This document shows, in pieces, positions 3,462 through 62,533 of a stretch of DNA of 64,000 bases (position 1 is its first letter; each line of letters opens with the position of its first letter). The notes beneath the pieces were generated by a model. It saw only the letters and a program-made list of their open reading frames with translations. It searched no databases and was not told the DNA's origin. This DNA comes from Candidatus Yanofskybacteria bacterium (GTDB taxonomy: Bacteria; Patescibacteriota; Minisyncoccia; 2-02-FULL-40-12; GWA2-44-9): the NCBI GenBank assembly GCA_003151795.1, contig PLYL01000008.1, positions 3,103-67,102 on the forward strand. Reading direction: 5' to 3'. Both the position numbers and the translations under genes were made by a program.

Positions 3462-3463
3462 TT

Positions 3464-9451: not shown

Positions 9452-9820
9452 TTGTCAGATTTAGTCAAAATTGGTAGAGTAAAGCCCATGCATCGGCCCA
9501 TGCTTGTTATTTTGGGAATCGGAATTCTGGCCGCGATCGCGGTGGGGATTTTGATGTATTCGACCGATCCGTTTACGGCCAGCACGGGGATTAAGGCGCT
9601 ACTTTTTATTTCGGTTTTTATTTTGATTATGAGTGTCTCGGCCCTTGTGCTTTATGGAATCGCGGTGGCGTGGCATAACGGGATGCGATATTTTTTCGCG
9701 AACTATTTCGGCCCGGAAGAATCATATTTTAAATCAAGTTTTCAGGGCGCGGTATTGGTTACGGTAATAATGATGCTCGTAATCGGTCTGCGCCGATTCG
9801 GATTACTGCAATGGAAATAA
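9452..9820 (+). CDS. hypothetical membrane protein
   Basis: ORF with 3 predicted TM helices. Confidence 0.5.
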   Translation: MSDLVKIGRVKPMHRPMLVILGIGILAAIAVGILMYSTDPFTASTGIKALLFISVFILIMSVSALVLYGIAVAWHNGMRYFFANYFGPEESYFKSSFQGAVLVTVIMMLVIGLRRFGLLQWK

Positions 9821-10278: not shown

Positions 10279-10290
10279 ATTTCTCAGGAT

Positions 10291-10319
10291 TTGCTATAAA
10301 AGTAGCCATGTGGTAGAAT
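10291..10319 (+). promoter_or_regulatory. putative promoter (-35 ttgcta, 17 bp, -10 tagaat) of a short ORF-poor transcript
   Basis: hexamers and spacing read directly. Confidence 0.35.
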
Positions 10320-10435
10320 TAGACCAATGTCAGCTAAATTCATAACAACTGCATATTGGCTCAGCTTGCACTTTACCCCTGCCAATCGGGAGTTGTTTAG
10401 AATTTCTTCGTAAAATATCGTTAGTCCAAGGATAT

Positions 10436-10472
10436 TCTCAACAACCCCTGATTCCCGGGGGTTGTTTGTTTG
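10436..10472 (+). terminator. intrinsic terminator-like hairpin (aacaacccc/ggggttgtt + tgttt); coordinates +/-1
   Basis: 9-bp GC-rich stem followed by T-rich tract, ~145 nt downstream of the promoter above. Confidence 0.45.
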
Positions 10473-10483
10473 AGAGGTGAAGA

Positions 10484-11386
10484 GTGCTTACAACAGAGAT
10501 GATTGGCTCGTCGCACGAAACCGCCATGAATTCCGGGGTTGTCGAACTCCCTGGTCGTATCGTTCAGAGTGGACCCGTGTTCTATGGCACATCGGATCCA
10601 GTTCCAAATGTTTCGGAACTAATCTTGACGGCTATCGTGGCAATTCTGTGCCAACAGCCAGCTAAGTTTTCGGTCTATCGAGGTGGTCGAACTGAATACG
10701 CGAAGGCCTCGGAGCGCTATTCCAGGAATTTGGTTGATGCGGGGATTGTGCCATCGGTGGATGAAGCCATTCGTATCGTGGGAGAGTGGTTCGGCCTGCG
10801 GATCAATGTCGTTTCCTTCGAGACGATCATGGAGGCCGGCGGTATATGGAATATGCCGTTGATTGAAATCGCACAGGCCATTCGAACTTTGCGGCCAAAG
10901 CCACTACGTTTTTGCTACATGCCCGAGATTTATGTACCAGACAGCCCAGCCAAAACGATCTACACCAACGATAAATGGTTGGAGAAGAATTCTCTAAAGA
11001 CAGTGGCCGATCTTCACGAAACGGGCGGCTGGTTATCGGGCGCTTCGATCCACTACTCGCTCCGGCGGTTCTCGGAGAAGTTTGCGGATCATATCCACGT
11101 CGTTCCATTCGGGACCAAAGGTGACGTTTATCGGATGTATGACGGAAGCGGTTCAAGGTTTGTTCTAGCTCCGGCTCTTCACATCCGTCCAGCAGGAGCG
11201 GAGCCAGAGTGGTTACCACTGGAATTGAGAACCTTCGCGGCTATCATTCAGCTCTGGCCAGAAGCTGAGCGAGTTCAGCTCCGAGATCGGCTTGTCTCGG
11301 AAGTCTCCAAGGGTTTTGAAGGAACGACCCAGAAAATTAGCTTGGAGTTTCGATCGGTTCAGGACTATCGAGTTACGATTGCCTAA
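10484..11386 (+). CDS. hypothetical protein (GC-rich relative to neighbours)
   Basis: 300-aa ORF, no recognisable motif. Confidence 0.55.
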   Translation: MLTTEMIGSSHETAMNSGVVELPGRIVQSGPVFYGTSDPVPNVSELILTAIVAILCQQPAKFSVYRGGRTEYAKASERYSRNLVDAGIVPSVDEAIRIVGEWFGLRINVVSFETIMEAGGIWNMPLIEIAQAIRTLRPKPLRFCYMPEIYVPDSPAKTIYTNDKWLEKNSLKTVADLHETGGWLSGASIHYSLRRFSEKFADHIHVVPFGTKGDVYRMYDGSGSRFVLAPALHIRPAGAEPEWLPLELRTFAAIIQLWPEAERVQLRDRLVSEVSKGFEGTTQKISLEFRSVQDYRVTIA

Positions 11387-11434: not shown

Positions 11435-12154
11435 ATGAAAAAATCAAAAACAATTAAAGATAAACGAGCATTAATATTTACTGCCCACCCCGATGATCAC
11501 TTACTGTGTGCTGGAACATTAATGTTGCTCAAAGAAAAAGGTTTCAAAATAACCGAAGTTGTATTTACTGGTGGAGAACAGAGCGTATGGTTTGGTTCTG
11601 ATAATTCTGTAATTGATAAAGAGGCTCTAAAAAGTGAGCGAAAGAAAGAGATATCTAAAGCATCTCGTATTATTGGTATTGATGAGACAATATTTCTCGG
11701 AGAACCAGACAGTGAAGTCACAAGGAGTTTAAATCTTATTCACCGGATCATGGCTATTGTCCGAGAGGTAAGGCCGTCAATAATTTTCACTCTCCACTAC
11801 AATGATTATCACCCTGATCACCGAGCTGTGGCGACTATCGTGACCGAAGCGGTAGATAGAGCTTCGTGGTCAGTAGCTCCACATCTGGGAGAATCACACA
11901 GAGCGGATATGCTCCTGTACACTGATGGTGAATACCTATGTCGGGCAGATTTTCTTGTGGACATTTCTAAATTTGAACCAAAGATAGAGAAAGCGATGGA
12001 TGCTTATGGTTCACAGATGAGAGAGAAGCACAGACGATTGAGTCGTTCCATTAGGGCATACCGAGGATTCTTCAAGCGGTCTAATGTCGCTGAAGCATTT
12101 GAAATCGGCGAAAGATATCCGATTGATTTAGAATTATTTTCTCTATTGTCATGA
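11435..12154 (+). CDS. LmbE/PIG-L family N-acetylglucosaminyl deacetylase
   Basis: AHPDDHLLCAGTL and HPDHRA motifs; ATG 11435 preferred over TTG 11390 in track. Confidence 0.75.
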   Translation: MKKSKTIKDKRALIFTAHPDDHLLCAGTLMLLKEKGFKITEVVFTGGEQSVWFGSDNSVIDKEALKSERKKEISKASRIIGIDETIFLGEPDSEVTRSLNLIHRIMAIVREVRPSIIFTLHYNDYHPDHRAVATIVTEAVDRASWSVAPHLGESHRADMLLYTDGEYLCRADFLVDISKFEPKIEKAMDAYGSQMREKHRRLSRSIRAYRGFFKRSNVAEAFEIGERYPIDLELFSLLS

Positions 12155-13173
12155 AAAAGTTAAATCAAAAAATTCTGTTGGTCCACGACTACCCCGCACT
12201 ACATGGTGGAGGCGTTGTTCAGTTAAATTTAGATTTGGCAAAATCTCTAATCCAAAAAGGTTCACAGGTCACGATTGCCGTTCCAGAATATAACCCCGAT
12301 CTAAAGAAGTTGATAACAGAGAGCGACCAAATTTTGGTCAGCTTATCTAGTAAATTCAGAGAGATGGGTAAGAAATCGATTAGAATTGCTAGGGCTTGTG
12401 GTAAGCCTTACAAGGTTTGGTTACACACAAAATTGCCAGAAAATTATTGCGATTCTGAACAAGGAAAAGAAATGCAAAAAGTTTTATCTGATAAATTTTG
12501 CCTATCTTTTATTTGCGTTTCTCAAAGTGTCGCCGATGATATGGTCGCTAACTTTGGTTTTTCTTTGAAGGTAGCAGTTGTCTATCCGGGTGTATACATG
12601 GCTCAAAGATTTGAAGCTGACTCGCTGAACCTTGTGCTTAAAAGCGACGTTCTGTTCGCTGGAAGACTGTCTACTGAAAAAGGTGGCGATATATTTATCA
12701 GGGCTTTCAGTAAGCTTTTAAAGAATTCGCCAAATCTTAAAGGCGTGATTATTGGTGACGGGGAAGAAAAAAACTCGCTGGTTGAGTTGGCTTTTAATCT
12801 TGGAATTAAAAAGTCTATAACTTTTTTACCTGCGTGTAGCAGAGAAGAACTTTTCAAATACATCCGAAATACTCGTCTATTTTGTGTTTCATCTCGCACA
12901 GAATCTTTTTGTATAACATTAGCCGAAGCTCTTGCCTTAGGAGCTACAGTAGTCGCGCCAAACAGGGGTGGTCCGATTGAAGTATTGGATTCGGGAAGAT
13001 TTGGCTACTTGTTTAAACCAGAGGATCCTAATGATCTTGCTAGGATTCTTAAAGTGGCTCTATCTGAAAATCTATCAAGTAAGTTACTCCAAAAACTTTA
13101 TGTCATGAGACGATTTAATGCTAGTGTTCAGTTTATTCAGATGGCTAAGCTCGTAATATCGCCGAATTGGTAA
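12151..13173 (+). CDS. GT4 (group 1) glycosyltransferase
   Basis: C-terminal GT4 signature region (…FAGRLSTEKGGDIFIRAF…LAEALALGATVVAPNRGGPIEV…). Confidence 0.8.
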   Translation: MKKLNQKILLVHDYPALHGGGVVQLNLDLAKSLIQKGSQVTIAVPEYNPDLKKLITESDQILVSLSSKFREMGKKSIRIARACGKPYKVWLHTKLPENYCDSEQGKEMQKVLSDKFCLSFICVSQSVADDMVANFGFSLKVAVVYPGVYMAQRFEADSLNLVLKSDVLFAGRLSTEKGGDIFIRAFSKLLKNSPNLKGVIIGDGEEKNSLVELAFNLGIKKSITFLPACSREELFKYIRNTRLFCVSSRTESFCITLAEALALGATVVAPNRGGPIEVLDSGRFGYLFKPEDPNDLARILKVALSENLSSKLLQKLYVMRRFNASVQFIQMAKLVISPNW

Positions 13174-13270
13174 CCCGACCTTACCCCTGCCCTAAAAGCT
13201 ATGAAATTCTCTAGAACGTATGGAATTATAGTCCAAAAACATCTATACTATTGTTAACAATATACACCAT

Positions 13271-14401
13271 ATGAATATTACAGTTCCAGAAGATAATAAC
13301 CTGTTAGATAAAGTTGAGGCAAGGCAAGATGCTGAGGGTTTGCGAATCAAGCGATTCTTGGCGATGCCGGATCTATCGCGTACTGAAGGCAGTCCGATCA
13401 AGGAGGTTGTTGAACGGATTCTCGCGCTCCCTGATTTTGCGGGCTTGGATGTTATTGAAGTTCCGGAAATAGTGCCGACTGATATTCATTTTGATCTATT
13501 TGATTTTCCCGCCGATCATCCGGCGCGATCTAAATCCGACACGTATTACGTAGACGATAACCATATTCTTCGCACCCACACGACGGTGATGTGGTACTAC
13601 TATCTGCAGGATCCTGATGTTAAACGCCGTATGGCTGAGGGTGAGCCCGTAGGTTGTTTCTGTTTTGGCAAGGTCTATCGCAAAGATGAGATTGATCGGA
13701 ATCACATGAATGTCTTTCACCAGATTGACGGTTGGTATCTCGCCCCAAAAGATAAAAAGATAATTGGTGCGAAAGAATTAGAAGAGGCTCTCCGAGGAAT
13801 TGGTCGGGCGGTATTTGGTCCAGACACCCCGCTCAATATAATTCCGGATACTTTTCCATTTACTGATCCATCCCGTCAAATGGAAGTAGAAAAGAAGGGT
13901 GTCTGGCTCGAAGTCTTGGGGAGCGGTGTCGTGAAGGGGAGCGTGCTCGAAAAATTTGGCGTGGATTCTTCTAAATGGAACGGTTGGGCGTTTGGGCCGG
14001 GTATTGAACGTCTGGCGATGGTTTCCATGGAATTGCCCGATATTCGTTTGCTCTGGTCACAGGATGAGCGGGTGAAGAAACAGCTCAAGCTCGGCCAGAA
14101 ATTCAAAGAAGTTTCCAAGTACCCACCAATCGTTCGCGATATTTCGTTCATCGTCCACAAGGATTTCATCCCCAACAATTATTTCGATTTAATTCGCGAT
14201 ATCGGCGGAGATTTGGTGGAAGAAGTTCATCTTCTCGATAAATACGAAAACGCCGAAAAATTCGGGCCCGATAAAATCAGCTATACTTACCGTATCACTT
14301 ATCGCTCTATCGACCGCACTCTCACGACCGAAGAAATTGAGCCGCTTCAAGAAAGAGTAATCTCGGAAACCAAGAAACAGTTCCAAGCGGAAATCCGGTA
14401 G
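13271..14401 (+). CDS. pheS: phenylalanyl-tRNA synthetase alpha subunit
   Basis: class II aaRS motifs (FPFTDPS…; GWAFGPGIERLAM motif 3). Confidence 0.9.
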   Translation: MNITVPEDNNLLDKVEARQDAEGLRIKRFLAMPDLSRTEGSPIKEVVERILALPDFAGLDVIEVPEIVPTDIHFDLFDFPADHPARSKSDTYYVDDNHILRTHTTVMWYYYLQDPDVKRRMAEGEPVGCFCFGKVYRKDEIDRNHMNVFHQIDGWYLAPKDKKIIGAKELEEALRGIGRAVFGPDTPLNIIPDTFPFTDPSRQMEVEKKGVWLEVLGSGVVKGSVLEKFGVDSSKWNGWAFGPGIERLAMVSMELPDIRLLWSQDERVKKQLKLGQKFKEVSKYPPIVRDISFIVHKDFIPNNYFDLIRDIGGDLVEEVHLLDKYENAEKFGPDKISYTYRITYRSIDRTLTTEEIEPLQERVISETKKQFQAEIR

Positions 14402-14403: not shown

Positions 14404-15321
14404 ATGTATAAATATCATTTGCCAAAACCAATTATCATAAAGCTCAATGATGAGTCAGGTTTTCGGTTAAGACAAAAAGCGGCAGAACATATTTCCATAA
14501 ATCAAAATAAAACCGGCGCCGAGCGGGGAAGTTCCGAGGAGCAAGGCTTTGGGGCGCTCGCGGAGATGGTTATACGAAATAAATTGGGTATGCCGGAAAT
14601 AAATCCCAAAGACCATCCTTTAGGATATGACCTCCTACTCCCTTCTGGAATAAAAGTTGATGTTAAATGTCGCGGCGGAACATTACCGTTTAAGGAAGAA
14701 TACGAAAGTAGTGACGGTATCGCAAGGGAAGCAAAGCATAATTTCTTCGCGCGCCAAATGCATGACGAAAGACTGGACGCCGATATTTATGTTATGACCC
14801 ATCTTGAAACTCCCAGCAAAAGAGAACTCCCGGGTACGACCAGACAAAGAAAATGGATATTGTACGTTTGCGGATGGGTATCAAAAGAGCGGGTTGCGAA
14901 TGAAGGCGTTTATCTGCCGCGAGGCTCTCTCACTGAACAAGGAAGAACATGGTTTCCGTATCGCGGGCAAGAGATAGAATATTATAATCGTAATCTGAAC
15001 GGATTAGAGAAGATGGAAGATTTATTGAGCATTGAATTGCCAGACGTTGAGAAAGACAGAAATCATAAGGGTGATTTAAACTTAACTTCCGCCGACGCAA
15101 TAAGGATAGCCTATGATCTTATTGGCCGTGGAGTGTTAAACGAAAAACACCTTGCTTTTATTCAGAAGGAAGCGGGTATATCAAAAATCGTGAAACCGAT
15201 TCTGAACCCGAATCAATATTTTCACTTGCTGTACTGGCTTAAAGAAAAAGGCGCTCTGACTGAAGTAGAAATAAAAAAAGCGAAAGAGATCCTTAAAGAA
15301 GAACCTTTTGATGGAATTTAA
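14404..15321 (+). CDS. putative PD-(D/E)xK nuclease, candidate restriction endonuclease partner of adjacent methyltransferase
   Basis: 'GYDLLLPSGIKVDVKCRGG' fits D…(D/E)xK; AT-rich; convergent with MTase gene, 4-nt overlap of stops. Confidence 0.35.
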   Translation: MYKYHLPKPIIIKLNDESGFRLRQKAAEHISINQNKTGAERGSSEEQGFGALAEMVIRNKLGMPEINPKDHPLGYDLLLPSGIKVDVKCRGGTLPFKEEYESSDGIAREAKHNFFARQMHDERLDADIYVMTHLETPSKRELPGTTRQRKWILYVCGWVSKERVANEGVYLPRGSLTEQGRTWFPYRGQEIEYYNRNLNGLEKMEDLLSIELPDVEKDRNHKGDLNLTSADAIRIAYDLIGRGVLNEKHLAFIQKEAGISKIVKPILNPNQYFHLLYWLKEKGALTEVEIKKAKEILKEEPFDGI

Positions 15322-16433
15322 AATAGCCTACTTGTATTGGCTCTGTATTGAGCCGCCGCCTCTTTCGTTCTTTTTCTAGAAATCTCCACATAGTCAACCT
15401 TATGCTTTTTAAAGAGATAGACTTCTTCATTTTTCTCAATCCCAATAAATTTTCTTCCTTCCAAAACTGCCGAGACAAGAAAGCTTCCGCTCCCACAAGT
15501 ATTATCTAATACAATATCACCCTCTTTAGTAAAGGTGCGAACAAGATAACGGCCAAGCTCTATAGGTTTTTGTGTAGGATGAAAAACTTCACCTTCGCTC
15601 TCGGCGGTTTTAAAATAAACTACATCGGTCGGATACCTCTCACCGTTACTTTTTACCTCTACTGTTTTGAAGTCGCCGTAGCTTCCTGTTAGCTGATCTT
15701 TTCTGAATCCTTTATTGTACGGTTCGCCGTATGTCATTTGAGGATTGTAGATTGGCTGATTTTTGTAAAAGATACAAATGTCTTCGTGTTTTCGCAGCGG
15801 CTGTTTTTTTGCGTTCAAAAAATTTGTGGGCTTTGATTTAATCCAGGTAATTTTGTACTTGAAAAGTTTTGGTTTAGAGAGCATTAAGTTAGCCGTAAAA
15901 AGTCCTTGGCCCGTGAGAGCGATTGCCCCGTTATCTTTAATAATCCGCTCGTAGTGTGTCCATAGCTGATCCAGCGGGATCACGCTATCCCAATGATTTT
16001 GAGTAGTGCCGTAGGGTAAATCGCACAAAATCATGTCCACAGATTTTGAGGGTATATCCACCATTATTTCCAAACAGTCGCCTTTGATTACCTTGTTTTC
16101 AAAATCAGTGATTATTTTTTTGCTTTTCTCTACTTTTGCTCCTATTTCTTCCGCTCCCATATTTTTTCGTAGGTACCATAAGCAATAGGTATTTACTGGC
16201 AGGCCCTCTTGATTGGCGCGTTGTTCAAGTTCCAGATAAGAATCTGTTCCAAGTAGGCCACGTAATTCACTACTCCCAAAATTAGCAATATTTTTGTATA
16301 GATCTTTATTCCTTTCTCCAAAGGCTAAGATAAATCCCTTTGCTTTCGGGTTAACATCTTTGTAGTCGGGGAAATAGACTGCTTTGAAAGTTTGGTGACT
16401 CGGCATAGATATATTATAGTATGATACCCCCAT
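15318..16433 (-). CDS. site-specific DNA methyltransferase (N6-adenine/N4-cytosine, beta class)
   Basis: motif IV 'DLPYG' (DPPY variant) precedes motif I 'DNTCGSGSF'; 'HPTQKP' motif. Confidence 0.85.
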   Translation of the reverse strand: MGVSYYNISMPSHQTFKAVYFPDYKDVNPKAKGFILAFGERNKDLYKNIANFGSSELRGLLGTDSYLELEQRANQEGLPVNTYCLWYLRKNMGAEEIGAKVEKSKKIITDFENKVIKGDCLEIMVDIPSKSVDMILCDLPYGTTQNHWDSVIPLDQLWTHYERIIKDNGAIALTGQGLFTANLMLSKPKLFKYKITWIKSKPTNFLNAKKQPLRKHEDICIFYKNQPIYNPQMTYGEPYNKGFRKDQLTGSYGDFKTVEVKSNGERYPTDVVYFKTAESEGEVFHPTQKPIELGRYLVRTFTKEGDIVLDNTCGSGSFLVSAVLEGRKFIGIEKNEEVYLFKKHKVDYVEISRKRTKEAAAQYRANTSRLF

Positions 16434-16448
16434 TATTTATATATGGTT

Positions 16449-16457
16449 TTATCCACA
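16449..16457 (+). promoter_or_regulatory. consensus DnaA box TTATCCACA upstream of gyrB
   Basis: exact 9-mer; single copy seen. Confidence 0.3.
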
Positions 16458-16487
16458 ATCCTAGACAAAACTATCCAGTCCGAACCC

Positions 16488-16516
16488 TTGTTTGGCGGGT
16501 AGTAAAATGCTACAAT
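16488..16516 (+). promoter_or_regulatory. gyrB promoter (-35 ttgttt, 17 bp, -10 tacaat)
   Basis: hexamers and spacing read directly; start codon 15 nt after -10 (very short leader, no SD). Confidence 0.5.
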
Positions 16517-16531: not shown

Positions 16532-19500
16532 ATGGCTGATAAAGAGCTCAAAAAATCCGAATATACCGCCAAAGATATCCAAGTTCTTGAGGGGCTGGAA
16601 CCGGTCCGGAAACGGCCGGGGATGTATATCGGCTCGACGGGCGTCGACGGCTTGCATCACCTCATCTGGGAAGTGTTCGACAACTCGATTGACGAAGCCA
16701 TGGCCGGCCACGCCCATCATATCGAGGTTGGGCTTTTGGCCGACAACAAAGTTCGCGTCGCTGACGATGGCCGCGGCATCCCGACCGATATCCATCCTAA
16801 GACCAAAAAATCCGCCCTCGAAACCGCGGCCACGGTCTTGCATGCCGGCGGTAAATTCGAACAAGGCGCGTATAAAGTTTCCGGCGGTTTACACGGCGTC
16901 GGTTTGTCTGTTGTAAACGCGCTCTCGACCTGGATGAAAGCCGAAGTCTATCGCAAGCCGGATATCTTCGCTCAAGAATACAAAATCGGCAAACCGCAGG
17001 GGCCGGTCAAAAAAGTCGGGACCACCAAAAAGACAGGGACGACGATTACTTTCCAGCCCGACCCGACTATTTTCCCCGATACAACCTTCGACCTGCCGTA
17101 TATTCTTAATCACATTCGCCAGCAGGCCTACTTGACCAAGGGCGTTAAGATTACCGTGACTGATGCCCGTAATCCGATTATTGTCGCCGGCAAAGATGGC
17201 AACCTGCCTGCCGGCAGGCAGGGAAAACAGGAAGCGCCGTTCGATTACACGTTTTATTTCGAAGGCGGGATTATGTCGTACGTTGATTTTTTGAATCACG
17301 GCGAAGAGGTCAAAAACAAAAACATTTTTTATGTCGGTAAGGAACAGCAGGACATGTTCGTCGAAGTTTCTCTGCAGTATATCGAAGAGCTCACGAGCCG
17401 AGAATTATCTTTTGCCAACAACATCCATACGATTGAGGGCGGGACGCATCTGACTGGTTTTCGTACCGCGCTGACCAGAATTTTGAATGACTACGCGCGC
17501 AAGAACGGATTTTTGAAAGAAAAAGACGATAACTTGTCAGGCGAAGACGTCCGGGAAGGCTTGACGGTGGTGATTTCAATCAAACTTCGCGAACCTCAAT
17601 TCGAAGGCCAGACCAAAGCCAAGCTCGGTACAACCGAAGCCCGCAATGCCGTCGAGACCGTGATGACCGTTGAGTTCACGGACTGGCTGGAGCGTAATCC
17701 GAACGATGCTCGGGCGATTCTCGAAAAAGTTATCCTGGCCTCGAAAGCCCGTCTCGCGGCCAAAGCGGCTCGCGATACGGTGCTGCGCAAGGGCGCCCTG
17801 GAAGGCATGACCTTGCCGGGCAAGCTCGCCGATTGTTCCAGCCGGGATGCTTCGGAATCCGAATTGTTTATCGTCGAGGGCGACTCGGCCGGCGGATGTT
17901 TTTCGGGCGATACAAAAGTCGCTTTGCTTGATGGCAGGAACCTTTCGTTTAAGGAATTAGTAGAGGAGGACATGACTGGTAAGAAAAACTACTGCTACAC
18001 CATCAAAAATGACGGCAATGTCAGCGTGGCCCAAATTTTACATCCGCGAATTACTAAAAAGAACGCAGAAATAATAAGGGTTACTTTAGATAATAAAGAG
18101 GAAATTAGATGTACCCCAGATCATAAATTTATGTTGCGAGACGGGACTTATAAGGAAGCTCAATACCTAACAAAAAAGGATTCGTTGATGCCATTGTATA
18201 GAAGGTTGTCTAAAATCGCCGGTCGGATAACCATCAAAGGTTATGAGATGGTATATAATCCCGCCGAACATTATTGGCGGTTCACTCATGTTTTGGCGGA
18301 TCAATACAATCTTGCTCGAGATGTCTATACTCCTGAAGGTGGGGAAGCTCGGCATCACAAAGATTTTAATAAGCTGAACAACAACCCCGACAACTTGGTT
18401 CGTATGGGGAAACAAGAACATTTAATGTTTCATACGCAATGGCTTGAAAAGACAGCCCGAACACCGGAAGTATTAGAAAAACTGCGTAAGATTAGACAAA
18501 GTCCTGAATATCGCGCCAAAATAAGCCAGACCATGAAAATGCCAGCCATGCGGGCAATGCTTAGTGAACGCGCGAAGAAACAATGGGAAAATAAAGAATA
18601 TAAGGAATTTATGAATTCCAAGTTTTTAGAATTCTATAATTCCAATGAAGAATATCGAAAAACTAATAATAAACTTCTTAATAAAGCCCAAAAAACTTAT
18701 TGGGCCAGTAAAGACAATCGTCATGAACAGGCCAAGCGAGTTGCAGATTTCTTTGATAAAAATCCGGAATACCGAGCCTTGCTTTCTCAACAGGCGAAAC
18801 GGCAGTGGGACAATAAAGAGCTGGTGGCTTGGCGAAGTTTGGAGACTAAAAAACAGTGGACCCCCGAGTTCAGAGCCAAGAGAAAAGAGGCTTATAGCAA
18901 AACATACTTTACCCATACGATTAAATTTATGAAGGGTATTTTTGATCGGGATCATTTTCTTGATCAGTATGATGTCTTGAGAATTCAAAATAAAAGTCGA
19001 AATTTGTTACGAAGTGAAACATTCTGCCACAGGTTCTTTGACGACAATCCAACCGCCATGCTAGATGCGGTAAAAAACTATAACCATAAAATTAGGAAGG
19101 TAGAGAAATTAATTGAATGGACTGATGTCTATGATTTAGAAGTCTCTGGGACTCACAATTTTGCTTTGGCAAGTGGTGTCTTTGTTCACAATAGTTCCAA
19201 GCAAGCCCGTAATCGCCATACCCAAGCCATCTTGCCGTTGCGCGGGAAGATTTTGAATGTCGAAAAAGCCCGTCTCGACAAAATGCTCGCCTCGCAAGAA
19301 ATCCGCAATTTGATTATCGCTATGGGTACGGCCATCGCCGAGGAGTTTGATTTATCCAAATTGCGCTACCACAAGATTGTCATCATGACCGACGCCGACG
19401 TTGACGGCGCCCATATCCGGACATTGTTGCTCACGCTTTTCTATCGATATTTCCCGCAAGTTATCGCGGGCGGCCATTTGTATATCGCACAACCGCCGTT

Positions 19501-20209: not shown

Positions 20210-20276
20210 ATTTATCCGCCCGAGGCGGATGAGAAGTTTGCAACTACTCACTCCGTTCGCAGGCAAACATCACATG
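20210..20276 (+). repeat. 67-bp leader repeat copy 1 (palindrome ATCCGCCcGAGGCGGAT + conserved tail ending in ATG of nusG)
   Basis: 66/67 identical to 20823..20889. Confidence 0.85.
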
Positions 20277-20819
20277 CCCAAACAAGTTGAAACAGGACAA
20301 CGCAATTGGTTCGCGATTCATACCTATGCCGGGTATGAGGATAACGTCGCGCGCAATTTAACCCAGCGGATTGAGTCGCTCGGTTTTGAAAATAAGATTT
20401 TTAATGTTTTGGTCCCGAAAGAAAAAAAGATTCGCATCAAATCCGGCAAGCGCGAGACCATCGAAGAGAAGATTTATCCGGGCTACGTCTTGGTGGAAAT
20501 GATTGTCGACGATGCTTCGTGGTATGTCGTGCGCAACACGCCCAACGTCACCGGCTTCATCGGCGCCGGGACCGTGCCGACACCGCTCGCGCCAGGCGAA
20601 GTGGAAGTTTTGCTCAAGCGCATGGGCGTGGATGAGCCGAAATACAAGATTGACGTGGCGGCGGGCGACCGAGTCAAGATTACCGACGGGCCGTTCAAAG
20701 ATTTCGACGGCAAGATTGCCGAGATTGACCCCGAGAAAGGCCGTGTTAAAGTGCTGGTGACGATTTTCGGGCGCGAGACGCCAGTCGAATTAGACTTTTT
20801 ACAGATTAAAAAATTATAA
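20274..20819 (+). CDS. nusG: transcription termination/antitermination factor NusG
   Basis: NGN and KOW domain motifs; start at ATG 20274 (MPKQ…) rather than track 20229. Confidence 0.9.
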   Translation: MPKQVETGQRNWFAIHTYAGYEDNVARNLTQRIESLGFENKIFNVLVPKEKKIRIKSGKRETIEEKIYPGYVLVEMIVDDASWYVVRNTPNVTGFIGAGTVPTPLAPGEVEVLLKRMGVDEPKYKIDVAAGDRVKITDGPFKDFDGKIAEIDPEKGRVKVLVTIFGRETPVELDFLQIKKL

Positions 20820-20822: not shown

Positions 20823-20889
20823 ATTTATCCGCCAGAGGCGGATGAGAAGTTTGCAACTACTCACTCCGTTCGCAGGCAAACATCACATG
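20823..20889 (+). repeat. 67-bp leader repeat copy 2 (ends in ATG of rplK)
   Basis: 66/67 identical to 20210..20276. Confidence 0.85.
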
Positions 20890-21306
20890 GCCAAGAAAAT
20901 CAAGACAATCGTAAAGTTACAGGTTATCGCCGGTGGTTTAGAGCCGTCAAAAATCGGGCAGGCTTTGGGGCCTCATGGTTTGAATCTCCAGCAGTTCATG
21001 TCGCAGGTCAACGAAGCGACCAAAGACAAAGCCGGCCAGCAGATTCCGGTCGAGATTACGATTTATGACGACCGGACGTTCTCATTTATTTTAAAGACTC
21101 CGCCGGCCGCTTATCTTTTGCACCGAGCTGCGGGGATTGAAAAGGGTTCGGGCGTGCCCAACAAGACTAAAGTCGGCACCGTGACCAAAGCCCAAGTTAA
21201 AGAAATTGCCGAACAAAAGATGGGCGACTTGAACGCCAACGATATCAATGCCGCCGCCAAGATTATCGAAGGCACCGCCCGCTCGATGGGCATCGACGTT
21301 AAGTAG
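20887..21306 (+). CDS. rplK: 50S ribosomal protein L11
   Basis: [17 protein letters not shown]… L11 N-terminus; start ATG 20887. Confidence 0.9.
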
Positions 21307-21322
21307 ATTTTATCAAGAACTA

Positions 21323-21362
21323 CCAAATTAAAGCCCCGACTTGCGTCGGGGCTTTAATTTGG
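21323..21362. terminator. long perfect hairpin (ccaaattaaagccccgac/gtcggggctttaatttgg) after rplK
   Basis: 18-bp stem, loop ttgc; U-rich 3' arm. Confidence 0.55.
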
Positions 21363-21413
21363 TAGTATTCTCAAGGTTCGTTTATAACCTAATTTCACCG
21401 AGAGGTCAGCTTT

Positions 21414-39947: not shown

Positions 39948-40466
39948 ATGGGGAAAGCTCTGGAAAGAGGTGTTATTGCCACTAAAATCGACCAGCGTCT
40001 TTATAAGAACGCCGTTTTGTATTTTATTAAGTACTGTAATAATCGTTATCTCCACCAAACTAAACTTAACAAGCTTTTGTATTATTTAGATTTTATTTCC
40101 TATCGTGATAATAAAAAATCAGTTACGGAGGATGTTTATATTCATAAGCAATATGGTCCAGTGCCTGCACACGCAGATGAGATATTGACTCAACTCAAAC
40201 AGCAAGGTGCTATTGGAACAAGTATGTCTTCCCACAAAGACGGAGAGATGATAAGTTTTGAATTGAAAGATGAATCGCAATTAGATGAATCGGTTTTTTC
40301 TCCAGAACAAAAGAAGCTCCTCAAAGAAATTTGTGATGAGTTTGGGGGTTGGCCAACTGAAAAGATTGTTGCCCAAACTCATTTAGAAGCTCCTTGGTTT
40401 TATTCAAAGCCTTATGAAATCGTCGATTATGCCTACGCACAAGACATCGGTTTCTTCAGGAAATAA
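39948..40466 (+). CDS. Panacea (DUF4065)-domain putative antitoxin
   Basis: TKLNKLLYYLDF…HKQYGPVPAH… pattern typical of DUF4065 phage-associated proteins; AT-rich. Confidence 0.55.
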   Translation: MGKALERGVIATKIDQRLYKNAVLYFIKYCNNRYLHQTKLNKLLYYLDFISYRDNKKSVTEDVYIHKQYGPVPAHADEILTQLKQQGAIGTSMSSHKDGEMISFELKDESQLDESVFSPEQKKLLKEICDEFGGWPTEKIVAQTHLEAPWFYSKPYEIVDYAYAQDIGFFRK

Positions 40467-40474
40467 TCAGAGCC

Positions 40475-40858
40475 ATGTCGTGGGTATATATCGAGAGAGA
40501 GCAATTTGTCCGTATGTGTGACAAACTGGATATATCAGCCACCGTCAGAGAATCTATAAAATCATGGGCACCCACTGTATCTAGATATGAGATACCACGC
40601 CAAAAACTAGTTTATCGGTCTCCTAAAAATAAATATGAAGCTTGGGCTGCTGGGCTTCCTAACCCAGATAGTAATAAAGGTAAAAGTGGTGGCTACAGGG
40701 TTGTTTATTATCTAGATCTTATTGAAAAAACGATAAACTTGGATTTTATTGAGGATAGAAAGAATCTAGGTTTTAAAGATGAAGGTCATCGTAAAAAAGA
40801 CGGCTATAATGATTATATTCGTGGTCTCAAAGAATTTTTAAAAGAGAATGATTGTTAA
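40475..40858 (+). CDS. HigB/RelE-like (Gp49-type) putative toxin
   Basis: KGKSGGYRVVYYLD… motif characteristic of HigB-2/RelE-family toxins. Confidence 0.55.
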   Translation: MSWVYIEREQFVRMCDKLDISATVRESIKSWAPTVSRYEIPRQKLVYRSPKNKYEAWAAGLPNPDSNKGKSGGYRVVYYLDLIEKTINLDFIEDRKNLGFKDEGHRKKDGYNDYIRGLKEFLKENDC

Positions 40859-40860
40859 TT

Positions 40861-40890
40861 AAAACCACCGATAGAATATCGGTGGTTTTA
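40861..40890. terminator. bidirectional rho-independent terminator
   Basis: aaaaccaccgatagaatatcggtggtttt. Confidence 0.8.
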
Positions 40891-40894
40891 ATTT

Positions 40895-40981
40895 TGGTGC
40901 CGCTGGTCGGACTCGAACCGACAAGGGATTGCTCCCACGACATTTTGAGTGTCGCATGGTTGCCAATTTCATCACAGCGGC
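40895..40981 (-). tRNA. tRNA-Leu (anticodon CAA), long variable arm
   Basis: acceptor GCCGCTG/CAGCGGC, anticodon stem CGACA/TGTCG with loop CTCAAAA, variable hairpin GGGAgcaaTCCC, T-arm GTCGG-TTCGAGT-CCGAC, CCA. Confidence 0.85.
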
Positions 40982-41054
40982 ATATTGACACTATAGCATT
41001 TTATCACCTATTTTTCAATTGAAAATTTTATTAAATAGGTTAGAATGAACGCAT

Positions 41055-42996: not shown

Positions 42997-43004
42997 TCCG
43001 AAAC

Positions 43005-43034
43005 AACCAAAAACCGCCTAGGCGGTTTTTGGTT
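43005..43034. terminator. bidirectional terminator, perfect palindrome aaccaaaaaccgcctaggcggtttttggtt
   Basis: read directly. Confidence 0.8.
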
Positions 43035-43040
43035 AGAGTC

Positions 43041-43229
43041 CTATCTCTTTTTCTTCGGTGCTCTCTGGGAAAGATCGCTAGCTGCAACAGATTTTTTCTG
43101 TCGGTGAGAGGTTTTCTTATCCCTCAACATCTTAGAAGCGATTTTCGCCATCTTTGCTGATGTTCTTCTGCTTTTAGGCATAGGAAGAAAGTAAATGGAA
43201 TAATTTTCGGCAATAACACGTGGCCGCAT
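43041..43229 (-). CDS. small basic hypothetical protein (uncertain)
   Basis: 62-aa Lys/Arg-rich ORF ending just before terminator. Confidence 0.25.
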   Translation of the reverse strand: MRPRVIAENYSIYFLPMPKSRRTSAKMAKIASKMLRDKKTSHRQKKSVAASDLSQRAPKKKR

Positions 43230-43634
43230 CCAGCAAGTTCTACCTTCACTGATTTCAGGAAATGCTGTTTCAGTTATTGTTTCTCGACATTTACCCCAAG
43301 TACTGGTTTAAGTTATTTGGATTTTTCAAGGCGACCAAATTCGATAGTCCGGCTATATTATATAAAAATAAAAAACTTGACGAAAGGTTAATAAGAATGG
43401 TTTGGGGACAACTTTGTGGACAACTAAAACAAGCGAAGTGATTGCTATTTTTCTCAATCTGCACAATCGGCTCTATTTCAGCGACTCTGACGCTATTTCT
43501 CTGGGTACCGAACCGAGGATGTCGAAAACGGCCCGTTAGGGCCGCATGGTTCGACAGGAGTTGCTTCGGTCGGTCAGAGAAATTAGGAAGAGTCGTTAGA
43601 AATAGTCCGAGCGGAAGCCTGAGAAAAATGGCAA

Positions 43635-51440: not shown

Positions 51441-51539
51441 GCGGACACAACGCTCCGCGCACTCGCACGATGCCATCTGGCATCGTGCCCCGAGCCCGGA
51501 GCTTTTGATTTTGTCTTATTTTAATGTACGATATGTAGG

Positions 51540-52613
51540 ATGCGAACTCTTCGAGACATCCCAGATTTAAAAGATAAAAAAGTCCTGTTACGGGTGGATT
51601 TTAATGTGCCCGTAAGTGAAAATGGGCAGATTGATGATGCGTTTCGAGTTAAGAAACAAAAAGAAATTCTAGACTTCCTTATCAGCCACGGCGCCAAAGT
51701 TGTGATGGTGTCGCATATCACGGCTACGCCAAGTTTCGCTGATTTAATACCCCAATTTCACATCCTGCTCGGTCTTGAAATTAATTTTATAAAATCGTTT
51801 GCTAATATCGGCGAGTATTTGGAACATTATGCCGGGCCCGCTCTACTAGATAATATTCGTCAGAATGAAGGCGAAGAAAAAAATGACTCCGATTTCGCGA
51901 AGCAGTTAGCTCAAGAATTTGATTTGTATATAAACAACGCGTTTGGCGAATGCCATCGGGATTATGCTTCTGTTTCGGCAATCACCAAATTTTTGTCGAG
52001 CTATGCCGGGCCATTGGTTGAGCAAGAAGTCGCTCAATTAAACAAAGTTATTGACGCGCCCAAAGAAGGCAAAGTGGTGATTATGGGCGGAGCGAAGGCT
52101 TCAACCAAAGTCCCGGTCATCAAAAATCTTATTGATAAATCGGAGGCGATACTGCTAGGCGGGGTCGTGGCCAATGATGTTCTCAAAGAAAAAGGCCAAG
52201 ACATGGGCAGTTCGGTGGTGGATGCCGAGGCACATGATTTGCTGGTCGGTCTCGATTTGAATGATTCCAGATTAGTGATTCCCAAAGATTTTATTATTTT
52301 TGATAACAAAATTCTGGATATCGGTGACGAAACCATGCGTCACTACATGGACATCGTTTCCAAAGCCACGATGATTATTTGGAATGGCCCACTGGGATTG
52401 TTTGAGAATCCCGTCTTCGCCAAAGGTACCAACGAGATTGCCCAAGCAATTATAGAATCATCGGCATTCAAAGTCATCGGCGGCGGCGACACGATATCCG
52501 CGGTTGATAAAATCGGTCTGTTGGCTAAATTCGATTTCGTCTCCACCGGCGGCGGCGCGATGCTCGCGTTTCTGGCGGGCGATAAATTGCCCGGCATAGA
52601 AGCATTGAATTAA
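51540..52613 (+). CDS. pgk: phosphoglycerate kinase
   Basis: LLRVDFNVP N-terminus and PGK hinge motifs. Confidence 0.9.
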   Translation: MRTLRDIPDLKDKKVLLRVDFNVPVSENGQIDDAFRVKKQKEILDFLISHGAKVVMVSHITATPSFADLIPQFHILLGLEINFIKSFANIGEYLEHYAGPALLDNIRQNEGEEKNDSDFAKQLAQEFDLYINNAFGECHRDYASVSAITKFLSSYAGPLVEQEVAQLNKVIDAPKEGKVVIMGGAKASTKVPVIKNLIDKSEAILLGGVVANDVLKEKGQDMGSSVVDAEAHDLLVGLDLNDSRLVIPKDFIIFDNKILDIGDETMRHYMDIVSKATMIIWNGPLGLFENPVFAKGTNEIAQAIIESSAFKVIGGGDTISAVDKIGLLAKFDFVSTGGGAMLAFLAGDKLPGIEALN

Positions 52614-60023: not shown

Positions 60024-60359
60024 ATGGATGAAGAAGTCCCTGAGGAAGTTCTTCGACAGAAGCCTGAAGAGCCCCTGGAACACGTTGGCTATTTCTCCGA
60101 ACGGATTGTTTGGACTGACGGCGACCTGGAGCGAATACTCGCGTTCGGGTGGCTGGAGATGAATCGGCGGTACCGTGGTGATTGTTTCCTCGATCTTCTT
60201 CTCAACAACGAGGGCCACGACGAATCTCAAGAAACGACTCAGCGTGATGCGCGAGTGGCCGCCACGGTTGTTCAGTGGTTCGGTTCGAACTGCGGTTTCG
60301 GCTTTATGGTGGACTGTCTCCGTAAAGCTGGTTACCAAGTTTCCGAACAGCCGAAGTAA
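60024..60359 (+). CDS. hypothetical acidic protein (GC-rich)
   Basis: 111-aa ORF followed by strong terminator. Confidence 0.4.
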   Translation: MDEEVPEEVLRQKPEEPLEHVGYFSERIVWTDGDLERILAFGWLEMNRRYRGDCFLDLLLNNEGHDESQETTQRDARVAATVVQWFGSNCGFGFMVDCLRKAGYQVSEQPK

Positions 60360-60364
60360 AAACT

Positions 60365-60398
60365 AACGACCGGCCAAGCCCGGTCGTTACCTTTTTTA
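60365..60398 (+). terminator. rho-independent terminator
   Basis: aacgaccgg/ccggtcgtt + accttttttat. Confidence 0.75.
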
Positions 60399-60420
60399 TC
60401 CCCATAAGATACACTTTATA

Positions 60421-60531
60421 TAATGCTTAAATCTCGGATATTGCGGGCGAGTGTGATTATTGGGACGTTTAGTTTTGGGGTGGCGGCGGTGGGGCAGAAA
60501 CTAGTGCCGACTATTCAGTCAACAATGTTTT
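60421..60531 (+). pseudogene. truncated duplicate of murJ 5' end (36-codon ORF MLKSRILRASVIIGTFSF…)
   Basis: first ~60 nt ~85% identical to murJ start at 61196 (MFKSKILRASVIIGGFSF…). Confidence 0.55.
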
Positions 60532-60612
60532 AATAATTTTTATCATTAGAGGCAGTATGTTCCAAAATGGAACTAACTGAATTTTTGTCCAACCCTTTTG
60601 AATCAGACAGGA

Positions 60613-60655
60613 ACTTCATTAGTAATGTGCATTTTTTGCACATTACTAATGAAGT
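60613..60655. promoter_or_regulatory. perfect palindrome: 19-bp arms acttcattagtaatgtgca / tgcacattactaatgaagt, 5-nt ttttt spacer; candidate operator upstream of mazF-like gene
   Basis: read directly; 17 bp upstream of ORF start 60672. Confidence 0.55.
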
Positions 60656-60671
60656 TATTTGAAAATCATGA

Positions 60672-61100
60672 ATGACTGTTTTAGTTTTTCAAAAATTGTG
60701 GTTTAATTTTTCTATGTCTAAAGATTTCAAGGCATGGCATGATAAAAAGGCGGATATTGATGAGATAGTGAAAAGACTGTTTTTCCATGAGCGAGAGATT
60801 TGGTATTGCCATCTAGGGCTTAACATTGGATTTGAACAAGACGGAAGAGGGGAAGATTTCTTAAGACCAATAATAGTGCTAAGAAAATTTAATAAAGAGG
60901 TACTCTGGATTGTCCCACTTACACATACCAAGAAAAATAGTAGATATTATTACTCTTTTAATTTTGTTGGTGCTACAAGTACAGCCATACTTTCACAGCT
61001 TAAACTTATTGATAGTCGCCGTTTGTCTTATAAAATAGGAGAAATTGATAGTGAAAGCTTTTTAAGTCTAAAACAAAAACTCAAGGTGATTTTGCCTTGA
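60672..61100 (+). CDS. MazF/PemK-like endoribonuclease toxin (solitary; no antitoxin ORF recognised)
   Basis: …EIWYCHLGLNIGFEQDGRGEDFLRPIIVLRKFNKEVLWIVPLTHTKK… and C-terminal …QLKLIDSRRLSYKIGEI… PemK-like pattern; AT-rich. Confidence 0.5.
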   Translation: MTVLVFQKLWFNFSMSKDFKAWHDKKADIDEIVKRLFFHEREIWYCHLGLNIGFEQDGRGEDFLRPIIVLRKFNKEVLWIVPLTHTKKNSRYYYSFNFVGATSTAILSQLKLIDSRRLSYKIGEIDSESFLSLKQKLKVILP

Positions 61101-61113
61101 GTTTTTGTTTTTT
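61076..61113 (+). terminator. rho-independent terminator
   Basis: aaaactcaagg/ccttgagtttt + tgtttttt. Confidence 0.7.
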
Positions 61114-61195
61114 ACCTCTGTCTTTCGACAGAGTCGAGCCGAAGCCATTTGTAGCTACATCCTATCAAATAACTTATTAACTGTCAAATCAATCA

Positions 61196-62533
61196 ATGTT
61201 CAAGTCTAAGATATTGCGGGCGAGTGTGATTATTGGGGGATTTAGTTTTGTGGCTGATCTCGTTGCGTTGTTGAGAGACAGAATACTCACGTCGCATTTT
61301 GGAGCCACAAGGATGCTGGATATTTATTACAGCGCGTTCAAACTGCCGGATTTAGTTTTTAATTTGTTAGTGCTAGGGGCGGTATCCTCGGCGTTTATTC
61401 CGGTGTTCGTCGGGGAGTACAAAAAAGACGAGAAGAATGCGTGGCGCGTGGCGCAGAATTTTACCAGCATTGTTTTCGCGATGGTGCTTGTGTTCGCGGG
61501 CGTGCTGTGGATATTCGCGGGCTCGGTGGTTACGCTGATTGCGCCGGGGTTTATCGGCGCGGATAGACAGCTGGCGATTTCACTCACGCGAATAATGCTT
61601 TTGTCGCCAGTATTATTTTCGTTAAGTACGATTTGCGGTTCGATCTTGCAATCGCTCCAGCGATTCTGGGCCTATGCTATCGCGCCGGTGTTGTATAACG
61701 CGGGCATTATCGCGGGCGCGGTGTATTTCGTACCGTTGATGCGAGCCCATGGCTATCCTGAAGTCTATGGTTTGGGCTGGGGCGTGGTCTTGGGCGCTTT
61801 CGCGCATTTTGTATTGCAGTTTATCGCCGCGCGGATGGCCGGATTTAAATTTAAAGCGGTCTTTGATTTCGGCGATAAGAATTTCAGAAAGATATTTCGA
61901 TTGATGATTCCGCGTACCATCGGTCTGGGCGCGTACAGCATTGATTCGGCAGTGGTGAACGCGTTCGCCTCGACGATGACGGCCGGGAGCATCGCCGTTT
62001 TGAACGTCGCCAATAATTTGCAGTTCGTGCCGATTTCGGTGGTAGGCGTGGCCGTGGCCACGGCCGTGTTTCCGAAACTATCGGGCCACGGGTCGGATAA
62101 TGAGATGAAAGAATTTAAGCAAAAATTATATTCGGCTCTCCGAAACACCGCTTTCATTGTTACGCCCCTCGCGATTGCGGGAATATTCTTATCCCACTGG
62201 GCGATTAATTTTTTGTTCGGCGCCGGTTTATTCCATAGCGCCAGCGTGGGGCTCACGGCCTCGGTCCTGGCGATCTTTATGTTCGGGATTCCGGCCCAGA
62301 GCCTGATCCCGATTCTTTCCCGAGCCTTCTACGCTTTGCACAATACCAAGGCCCCTGTGCTTATTTCCATTTTTTCGATTATAATTAACTTAAGTCTGGC
62401 GTGGTTCTTTGGCGTCGTCCACGGCGGAGGCGTGAAGGGCCTGGCGATCGCGTTTGCTATCGCGGGGAATGTCAATTTCCTTCTGCTGTGGATATCTTTT
62501 ACAAGATTCTTTAAACGTGGTATAACAAGATAG
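61196..62533 (+). CDS. murJ: lipid II flippase MurJ/MviN
   Basis: 12+ TM ORF with MurJ N-terminal pattern. Confidence 0.85.
   Translation: MFKSKILRASVIIGGFSFVADLVALLRDRILTSHFGATRMLDIYYSAFKLPDLVFNLLVLGAVSSAFIPVFVGEYKKDEKNAWRVAQNFTSIVFAMVLVFAGVLWIFAGSVVTLIAPGFIGADRQLAISLTRIMLLSPVLFSLSTICGSILQSLQRFWAYAIAPVLYNAGIIAGAVYFVPLMRAHGYPEVYGLGWGVVLGAFAHFVLQFIAARMAGFKFKAVFDFGDKNFRKIFRLMIPRTIGLGAYSIDSAVVNAFASTMTAGSIAVLNVANNLQFVPISVVGVAVATAVFPKLSGHGSDNEMKEFKQKLYSALRNTAFIVTPLAIAGIFLSHWAINFLFGAGLFHSASVGLTASVLAIFMFGIPAQSLIPILSRAFYALHNTKAPVLISIFSIIINLSLAWFFGVVHGGGVKGLAIAFAIAGNVNFLLLWISFTRFFKRGITR

Follow-up and report, generated by a model that had tools for sequence, protein, structure and literature searches.

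MazF is a textbook type II toxin, and ToxN of the type III systems has a Kid/MazF-like fold. In the type I systems par/Fst (RNA I–RNA II, from pAD1), txpA/RatA, and bsrG/SR4 (both from Bacillus subtilis), toxin and antitoxin transcripts converge and meet at their 3′ ends in a common or overlapping bidirectional terminator, and the antitoxin has a strong promoter of its own; the toxins of these systems are membrane peptides of fewer than 60 amino acids (aa), and SymE and RalR are exceptions to the small hydrophobic peptide toxin of type I. In the type III systems (ToxIN, CptIN, and TenpIN; PMC8860590), an endoribonuclease toxin is neutralized by a structured noncoding RNA. Here we describe a locus beside murJ in a 64,000-nucleotide (nt) stretch of Candidatus Yanofskybacteria DNA (contig PLYL01000008.1; hereafter the window), where an AT-rich insert carries a MazF/PemK-fold toxin gene and a convergent small RNA (sRNA) gene. 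We consider it probable that this insert is a two-gene toxin–antitoxin module of approximately 500 bp with an RNA antitoxin. Its features are as follows.

Approximately 61152 to 61069, minus strand: conserved sRNA gene of approximately 84 nt, candidate RNA antitoxin, beginning 5′ ACAAAUGG
61187–61159, minus strand: predicted sigma-70 promoter of the sRNA, with TTGACA at 61187–61182, 17 nt, TG, and TAGGAT at 61164–61159; predicted transcription start site at A61152
61146–61144/61139–61137, minus strand: helix P1 of the sRNA, with a UUCG loop
61133–61127/61122–61116, minus strand: helix P2 of the sRNA, with a GAAA loop and followed by an A-rich linker
61111–61095/61086–61070, minus strand: helix P3, the predicted terminator of the sRNA, antisense to the toxin gene across its stop codon and final 11 codons
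60714–61100, plus strand: MazF/PemK-fold toxin gene, 128 aa; the longest open reading frame (ORF) begins at 60672
60685–60713, plus strand: predicted toxin promoter region, TTCAAAAATTGTGGTTTAAT, common to the related contig L214, from alignment with L214 and direct reading

The module resembles type II MazEF, PemIK, and Kis-Kid in its toxin fold and in the equivalents of the catalytic Arg and Thr, but it has no MazE/PemI gene and possesses an extra N-terminal helix and a linked sRNA. As in the convergent type I systems, the predicted sRNA is antisense to the end of the toxin gene, overlapping its last 11 codons, the stop codon, and the terminator (61069–61111), whereas the toxin is predicted to be a 128-aa soluble MazF-fold RNase; in addition, unlike in par or SprA1/SprA1AS, the 5′ domain of the sRNA has no detectable complementarity to the 5′ region of the toxin gene. 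The invariant motif of the sRNA would fit direct recognition by a protein, as in type III. However, type III antitoxins are tandem repeats located upstream on the same strand and processed by the toxin, whereas the window sRNA is a single convergent copy downstream, and type III toxins belong to the ToxN/AbiQ families, whereas the window toxin belongs to PF02452. We found no MazF/PemK toxin with an RNA antitoxin in Patescibacteria or the Candidate Phyla Radiation in the searchable literature.

The promoter at 61187–61159 was the best match of a generic promoter scan in the region, and the predicted RNA therefore runs from A61152 to approximately 61069. Across loci, the minus-strand consensus consists of TTGAC(A/T), 16 to 17 nt, TG-n-TATACT, 6 nt, and ACAAAYGGCUUCGGCCC, followed by a hairpin whose sequence varies and whose loop is GNRA or UUCG, an A-rich linker, and a U-run hairpin over the last 10 to 12 codons of the toxin. 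Among 157 distinct modules, the −35 box was TTGACA or TTGACT in 114 and the extended −10 TG was present in 98; the −10 box fits TAnnnT, being TATACT in 55, and the gap between it and the A of ACAAA was 6 nt in 134. The final hairpin, with T-runs and 17-nt arms (61070–61086 and 61095–61111), overlaps the toxin stop codon, is terminator-like, and corresponds to the strong terminator that an earlier reading of the window (hereafter the sequence-only reading) had placed at the end of the toxin gene.

A hand-checked alignment of 28 sequences contained 98.6% paired cells and 12 pairs with double changes. The covariance model built from it matched the window at 61060–61154 on the minus strand with 103.3 bits, and a model-based alignment of 74 sequences contained 98.1% paired cells, with compensatory double changes in 21 of 23 pairs; the latter alignment leans toward the model, and a MAFFT-based count agreed with it. 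None of 500 shuffles reached the observed values, and slid registers gave 61% or less. The window sRNA folded with a minimum free energy of −36.1 kcal/mol (z = −6.3). The UUCG and GNRA loops can be read on the minus strand only, and 18 G–U cells in P2 would become A–C mismatches if the plus strand were read. Rfam 15, including the pemK motif RF02913, gave no relevant match at E ≤ 1 in 60300–61400, and no Rfam 15 family reached its gathering score over the sRNA in 15 loci; the main text of Weinberg 2017 contains no discussion of pemK.

The linkage of toxin and sRNA was examined from both sides. In a protein-first set, composed of the best 80 of at least 577 matching stretches and drawn from GTDB species-representative genomes (loci are numbered with L), the sRNA element lay directly downstream of the toxin gene on the opposite strand in 80 of 80 loci, and the overlap geometry was kept in all of them. 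The modules occupy many unrelated gene contexts, and the neighboring genes are unrelated between loci; the proposal of the sequence-only reading that the toxin is specially tied to murJ thus does not hold. An RNA-first search of metagenome contigs with an exact 20-nt sRNA motif gave 120 loci, from which six chance matches in GC-rich coding sequence without a model match and five loci cut by a contig end were set aside. The 109 real sRNA loci comprised 79 with a full-length toxin, eight with a toxin cut by a contig end, and 22 with an intact sRNA and a broken toxin that was internally deleted, truncated, or frameshifted (e.g., L107, L161, L171, and L155; in L148, L164, and L175, the product is MKDF-LVLKEKIRQLLT, ended by a stop codon). 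Intact toxins without the sRNA thus numbered 0 of 80, compared with 22 of 101 assessable sRNAs (approximately 22%) with a broken toxin (Fisher p = 9e-7). The RNA outlives the toxin, and no intact toxin was seen without the RNA; such a pattern would arise if a cell that lost the RNA before the toxin died, and it is how an antitoxin gene should behave. On this comparative evidence, we regard the RNA gene, its structure, its location on the minus strand, and its obligate linkage to the toxin as established.

The toxin loci are almost all from Patescibacteria, where the combination of toxin and sRNA is widespread and was encountered in hundreds of genomes, together with two contigs labeled as uncultured Alphaproteobacteria (L075 and L086, the latter 1.29 Mb long), which carry complete toxin and sRNA modules (50–56 bits) within GC-rich flanks, suggesting transfer between phyla or mislabeled bins. 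Five motif matches in IMG/VR, considered as possible phage carriage, were rejected as chance matches inside GC-rich coding regions (model scores ≤16 bits). In a divergent subclade (L058, L081, L083, L087, and the second of the two L027 modules), only the 5′ motif and one long GAAA hairpin ending at the stop codon are left of the RNA. L021 (approximately 4403–4505) has two tandem 5′ domains, namely, a short-P2 unit with a promoter and then a slightly degenerate motif with a long P2, and P2 is duplicated in L022 (approximately 2461–2535); such duplicated units may reflect replacement of cassettes at the conserved motif or may be multivalent RNAs. L027 contains two modules of different subclades (4019–4446 and 5104–5556) within approximately 1.3 kb, and L082 contains a second sRNA copy (4350–4440 and 5666–5755) within a similar distance of approximately 1.3 kb.

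The ORF at 60672–61100 matched PF02452 (PemK_toxin) with 34.4 bits (E = 2.7e-8; cut-off, 23.1), in accordance with the sequence-only reading, which had proposed a PemK/MazF-like protein of 142 aa. The ORF and its family therefore stand, but the 273 detected homologues are mostly 128 to 135 aa long and begin with MxKDF, so the true start is most likely the ATG at 60714 and the protein 128 aa long. The family profile matched B. subtilis EndoA/YdcE, Bacillus anthracis MoxT, and the MazF proteins of Staphylococcus aureus and Escherichia coli (E about 1e-4). An AlphaFold2 model (pLDDT, 78.7) showed the SH3-like barrel of the MazF fold, and the top 50 Foldseek hits in the Protein Data Bank were all MazF-family proteins (TM scores, 0.6–0.8; probability, 1.00). 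In the family alignment, R51-P52 shows no variation, conservation at P68-L69-T70 is at least 90%, and R51 in the RP motif and T70 in the PLT motif align with R29 and T52 of E. coli MazF, which we take to be its catalytic residues. Judged from the alignment and the model, the toxin looks active; it also has an extra N-terminal helix at residues 5 to 16.

The toxin gene has a predicted extended −10 promoter, with TG at 60699–60700 and TTTAAT at 60702–60707, which predicts a leaderless mRNA beginning at A60714. A −10-like box ending 4 to 9 nt before the toxin ATG was found in 30 of 76 loci, compared with 7% in the background, and many toxins of the family are therefore probably translated from leaderless mRNAs. 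The clade includes at least 577 matching genomic stretches, with 251 representatives at 50% identity and E ≤ 1e-30; public annotations call these homologues type II, and pipelines label the clade as “type II toxin-antitoxin system PemK/MazF family toxin.” No PADLOC defence model matched at the locus. The closest homologue (77% identical; L002–L007) lies between an IleRS-like gene and recO, and approximately 60 nt after its stop codon match the window, including the hairpin with a compensatory change. In several metagenome assemblies with this homologue (short contigs such as L002, L006, and L007), the contig ends precisely 64 nt ahead of the toxin gene, which fits strain-level presence/absence variation at that junction.

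The insert in the window is bracketed by two copies of the 5′ end of murJ, and the remaining features are as follows.

60422–60480, plus strand: left copy of the murJ 5′ end, read as an insertion scar, starting a 36-codon pseudo-ORF and keeping an ancestral-looking MLKS start
60481–60611, no strand assigned: AT-rich filler that the orthologous L214 insertion does not contain
60612–60656, no strand assigned: perfect 45-bp palindrome with a TTTTT loop, locus-specific
61195–61253, plus strand: right repeat copy, the 5′ end of the intact murJ

The sequence-only reading had reported a 36-codon copy of the murJ start approximately 770 bp upstream of the intact gene with about 85% identity. This duplication was confirmed as a 59-nt direct repeat (60422–60480 and 61195–61253) that is 85% identical and encloses an AT-rich insert of approximately 770 bp, with an identical 27-nt core at 60438 and 61211 and no chance match in 100 shuffles. 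The left copy opens the 36-codon ORF (60423–60533), the first 19 residues of which mirror MurJ, and the MurJ of L213, a relative with an empty site, begins with the same MLKS. The intact murJ (61196–62533) matched the MurJ families of Pfam and TIGR01695 with 296 and 295 bits, respectively, and the GC content is 0.30 to 0.35 across 60500–61200 versus approximately 0.50 in the flanks. Over 60420–61434 (1015 nt), both repeat copies included, a separate Logan assembly (L001, from run SRR7151530) matches the window with 100% identity, so the duplication is not an artifact of one assembly pipeline.

As the same reading had proposed, the module was inserted at the murJ start: in L213 (MurJ 95% identical) and L216/L217 (86% identical), a DUF4012 gene is directly followed by murJ. 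In L214 (MurJ 87% identical), the order is that of the window, namely, DUF4012, a 110-aa ORF, the PemK gene, and murJ, but the insertion has neither the left repeat nor the palindrome, and its toxin is 56% identical to that of the window. The two insertions show conservation of 20 nt before the toxin start and approximately 120 nt after the toxin (this downstream stretch is 83% identical), and the murJ ATG of L214 overlaps the end of the module. With empty, filled, and differing sites among these relatives, the gap between DUF4012 and murJ is therefore a variable hotspot; from the alignment with L214, we take the common unit to be approximately 500 bp, comprising the predicted toxin promoter, the toxin, and the downstream element. 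Only 8 nt separate the −35 box of the sRNA from the murJ ATG, so murJ must be transcribed through, or from within, the module.

No MazE-like gene was found around the window toxin, where the neighboring ORFs had no Pfam match, and among the neighbor ORFs of approximately 75 loci no family recurred in more than six loci, those being syntenic; the earlier observation that no MazE-like ORF is visible was therefore correct. The 111-aa ORF at 60024–60359 was rejected as an antitoxin: it had no match in Pfam, NCBIfam, or PADLOC, it recurs only in L214, and a terminator and the murJ scar separate it from the toxin gene. This ORF, which has no family match, is itself an indel, missing from the DUF4012–murJ gap in the relatives with 95% and 86% MurJ identity; the L214 version is 50% identical.

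The palindrome upstream of the toxin is indeed perfect, but it is 45 bp long with 20-nt arms (60612–60631 and 60637–60656) and a 5-nt T loop, rather than 43 bp with 19-bp arms as first described. It is unique in the window and forms part of a fold of −41 kcal/mol; 15 nt separate its end from the ATG at 60672, and 57 nt separate it from the more probable start at 60714. It had been proposed as the operator of an antitoxin or the precursor of an antitoxin RNA; both proposals fail, since the palindrome is found neither in the orthologous L214 insertion nor beside the closest toxin homologue (L002/L003) nor at any other locus. The idea of an RNA antitoxin itself appears correct, but the position was wrong: the RNA gene follows the toxin gene, is on the other strand, and extends in part beyond the features first described. 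Perfect hairpins with arms of 10 to 20 nt occur at −70 to −116 from the toxin ATG in nine of approximately 75 loci, the window included, and in the other loci, judged from their sequences, they look like terminators of the upstream gene. In the window, the native murJ promoter was left stranded, with its 36-codon stub, on one side of the palindrome, and the toxin promoter is on the other; the palindrome may insulate the toxin from read-through out of the old murJ promoter; this role is only a guess because the palindrome has no U-tract. The filler and adjoining sequence (60481–60713) showed no significant similarity to any fetched locus, except for the promoter stretch common to L214.

Similar scars recur at other sites. 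Imperfect direct repeats of 20 to 71 nt, 75 to 100% identical, bracket 21 of 144 testable modules (15%), compared with three of 322 control placements of the same geometry (p = 5e-9). The duplicated sequence is whatever occupies the site, such as the 3′ end of the upstream gene in L061 and the murJ 5′ end in the window, and the repeats enclose variable amounts of extra sequence. No recombinase, integrase, or transposase recurred near the modules among the neighbor ORFs of approximately 75 loci. The simplest reading is a target-duplicating insertion, in which the process would duplicate tens of bases of the target (approximately 59 nt at the murJ start) and the copies would later decay. A speculative alternative is that a circular fragment integrated at a short homeologous stretch by a Campbell-type event, with which the identical cores of 27 to 35 nt in the repeats of the window and L024 are consistent. 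The recurrent long imperfect repeats point to a route by which small modules that lack a recombinase spread among these genomes.

We infer the antitoxin role of the sRNA from the genetics, and several other explanations of the locus were weighed. The sRNA could be a required cofactor or guide of the toxin or a regulator of something else, for example, activating the nuclease or controlling neighboring genes, without being an antitoxin. A specific RNA–protein complex of any function would fit the obligate linkage and the strong conservation of the single-stranded 5′ motif; however, a cofactor is not expected to outlast its deleted protein gene, as the sRNA does in 22 of 101 assessable loci, whereas no toxin was retained in the absence of the RNA. 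The neighboring genes are also unrelated between loci. We consider this explanation unlikely. It is appreciably less probable still that the downstream element merely ends the toxin mRNA, as its 3′ untranslated region or terminator, or that it mobilizes the gene as a recombination site in single-stranded DNA resembling attC or a transposon end. The element does travel with the gene and contain hairpins, the module is mobile and repeat-flanked, and covariation alone cannot tell folding of RNA from that of single-stranded DNA; but the element also has a near-consensus extended −10 promoter on the minus strand at a fixed 6-nt distance from its conserved 5′ end, a U-run terminator, and UUCG/GNRA loops and G–U pairs on that strand only, it stays intact after deletion of the toxin, and no integrase or transposase recurs nearby.

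The PF02452 match, the MazF fold, the public type II annotations, and the perfect palindrome upstream would also suit the remnant of a classical type II mazEF system, namely, an orphan MazF whose MazE is elsewhere or lost and whose operator is the palindrome. We give this explanation very little weight: no protein neighbor is conserved in approximately 75 loci, the palindrome is missing from L214 and every other locus, and the toxin occurs in at least 577 copies that are consistently solo yet consistently linked to one RNA gene, unlike orphan remnants. It is highly improbable that the murJ duplication arose from misassembly or a mixture of strains, even though the source is a metagenome-assembled contig and the copies differ by 15%, as two strains might, since the independent Logan assembly agrees over 1015 nt, flanking repeats recur in modules from many studies at the frequency given above, and the left copy runs on into unique sequence. 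Finally, the minus-strand element might encode a small peptide antitoxin from the AUG within ACAAAUGG, where an open frame (MASARLCRK...EFLF; 25 codons in the window) is present in the window and L003. However, the U of this AUG is C in many loci (ACAAACGG), giving ACG, the differences in P2 length are not multiples of three, the short class has a frame of only 10 codons, and the substitutions are paired and compensatory rather than codon-like; we see next to no chance that this explanation is right.

Some points weigh against an RNA antitoxin as well. The asymmetry between sRNAs with a broken toxin and toxins without an sRNA carries an ascertainment caveat, in that each search needed its own query to be intact, the RNA-first search accepted only exact matches to a 20-nt motif, and the protein-first set covered the best 80 among at least 577 stretches; the promoter, transcription start site, and terminator of the sRNA are predictions from sequence; the pairing energy of the sRNA 5′ domain with the toxin 5′ region averaged −15.87 kcal/mol versus −15.88 kcal/mol for shuffles, showing no excess complementarity; and the sRNA is single-copy and convergent, unlike known type III antitoxins.

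If the insert is a toxin–antitoxin module with an RNA antitoxin, transcription of the MazF-fold endoribonuclease gene (60714–61100, plus strand) from an extended −10 promoter of its own would probably yield a leaderless mRNA, and the convergent sRNA of approximately 84 nt, driven by a near-consensus sigma-70 promoter, would keep the toxin silent. Since the two genes share a putative bidirectional terminator, the 3′ ends of the toxin mRNA and the sRNA are predicted to be complementary over approximately 45 nt (61069–61111). The sRNA might then act in a type I-like manner, causing decay of the toxin mRNA by base pairing at its 3′ end, or in a type III-like manner, its invariant 5′ domain (ACAAAYGGCUUCGGCCC and P2) binding the toxin dimer, possibly as an uncleavable pseudo-substrate; both may operate. 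The most conserved part of the RNA, the first 17 to 18 nt and P2, falls outside the predicted overlap with the toxin mRNA and lacks excess complementarity to the toxin 5′ region, so pure antisense action fails to explain its conservation; pairing of this domain in trans with the toxin translation start, as in SprA1AS or par, was rejected for lack of a signal. This pattern suggests that the 5′ domain is recognized by a conserved macromolecule, most plausibly the toxin itself. MazF-type enzymes recognize ACA (E. coli) or UACAU (B. subtilis), which the 5′-ACA start of the sRNA resembles, and a role as a pseudo-substrate is conceivable, though this is pure inference. A bolder version, which we think doubtful but worth stating, is that a phylum-wide MazF clade swapped MazE for one structured RNA acting as a direct inhibitor of the enzyme, the 5′-triphosphate ACAAAYGG-UUCG hairpin lying as an uncleavable pseudo-substrate in the dimer groove, so that the system would be neither a type III repeat array nor mere type I antisense, and that the modules also spread by an undescribed insertion route leaving target duplications of 20 to 70 nt.

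Solo full-length homologues of the toxin (27–40% identical; PF02452, 33–54 bits) also occur in cultured Campylobacterota, on Campylobacter jejuni pVir and pVir-like plasmids, in CJIE4 prophages (between the terminase and portal genes), and on Helicobacter suis and Nitratiruptor plasmids. Each has a convergent sigma-70 promoter approximately 90 nt downstream (TTGATT-17-TG-TATAAT in pCj2/pVir) and G+C hairpins abutting the stop codon. The Patescibacteria covariance model gave no score on these Campylobacterota RNA regions, and the RNA sequences differ. The pVir PemK homologue (WP_011117588.1; 30634–31038; PF02452, 32.9 bits) has the same N-terminal extension and is the sole annotated toxin of pVir. 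According to PMC7826846, pVir is reported to carry an experimentally validated type I RNA antitoxin, cjrA, paired with the protein toxin CjpT (Shen et al. 2016, cited there), and cjrA was found without a toxin in four isolates. CjpT may be the PemK homologue of pVir, which we treat as a lead only. The pVir and window modules have in common a solo PemK/MazF homologue, a convergent promoter, and a hairpin at the stop codon, and just as cjrA is reported there without its toxin, the Patescibacteria sRNA is also found with a broken toxin; on the other hand, the toxins are only approximately 30% identical and the Campylobacter RNA lacks ACAAAYGGCUUCGGCCC. The pVir sRNA region also occurs at 93% identity on C. 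jejuni pCJ419 (L223; NC_004997.1, 3080–3174) and on four similar cryptic plasmids of 3.8 to 5.2 kb, where it adjoins an unrelated 142-aa gene and no MazF homologue is present; this region may be an orphan antitoxin RNA.

If CjpT is the pVir PemK homologue, the Patescibacteria modules would form a large, distinct branch of a kind with one characterized member; if it is a different protein, they would be more novel. Should the toxins prove to be RNA-controlled, hundreds to thousands of apparent orphan toxins in Patescibacteria, and probably those of Campylobacterota plasmids and prophages, would be complete systems, and toxin fold and antitoxin type would recombine more freely than the classification implies. 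The homologues in cultured Campylobacter and Helicobacter make the RNA-antitoxin hypothesis directly testable. To our knowledge, few conserved regulatory RNAs have been described in Patescibacteria, which under this hypothesis would gain a well-supported sRNA family with a defined promoter and, with it, a handle on promoters, leaderless mRNAs, and RNA decay.

Elsewhere in the window, many other scattered AT-rich islands (GC content of 0.36–0.42 versus approximately 0.50), for example, at 3001–3500, 9501–10500, 11501–13500, 15001–16500, 18001–19000, 40001–41000, 43001–43500, and 51501–52000, may be further insertions; no second copy matching the sRNA model was found in them, and a weak model match at 21312–21387 was discarded as the rplK terminator. 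An 85-nt direct repeat (20210–20294 and 20823–20907; 91% identical) directly precedes nusG and rplK and extends into the beginning of each gene. A short hairpin falls within the repeat, which gives both ORF calls the same first 16 residues and may be a duplicated promoter or leader.

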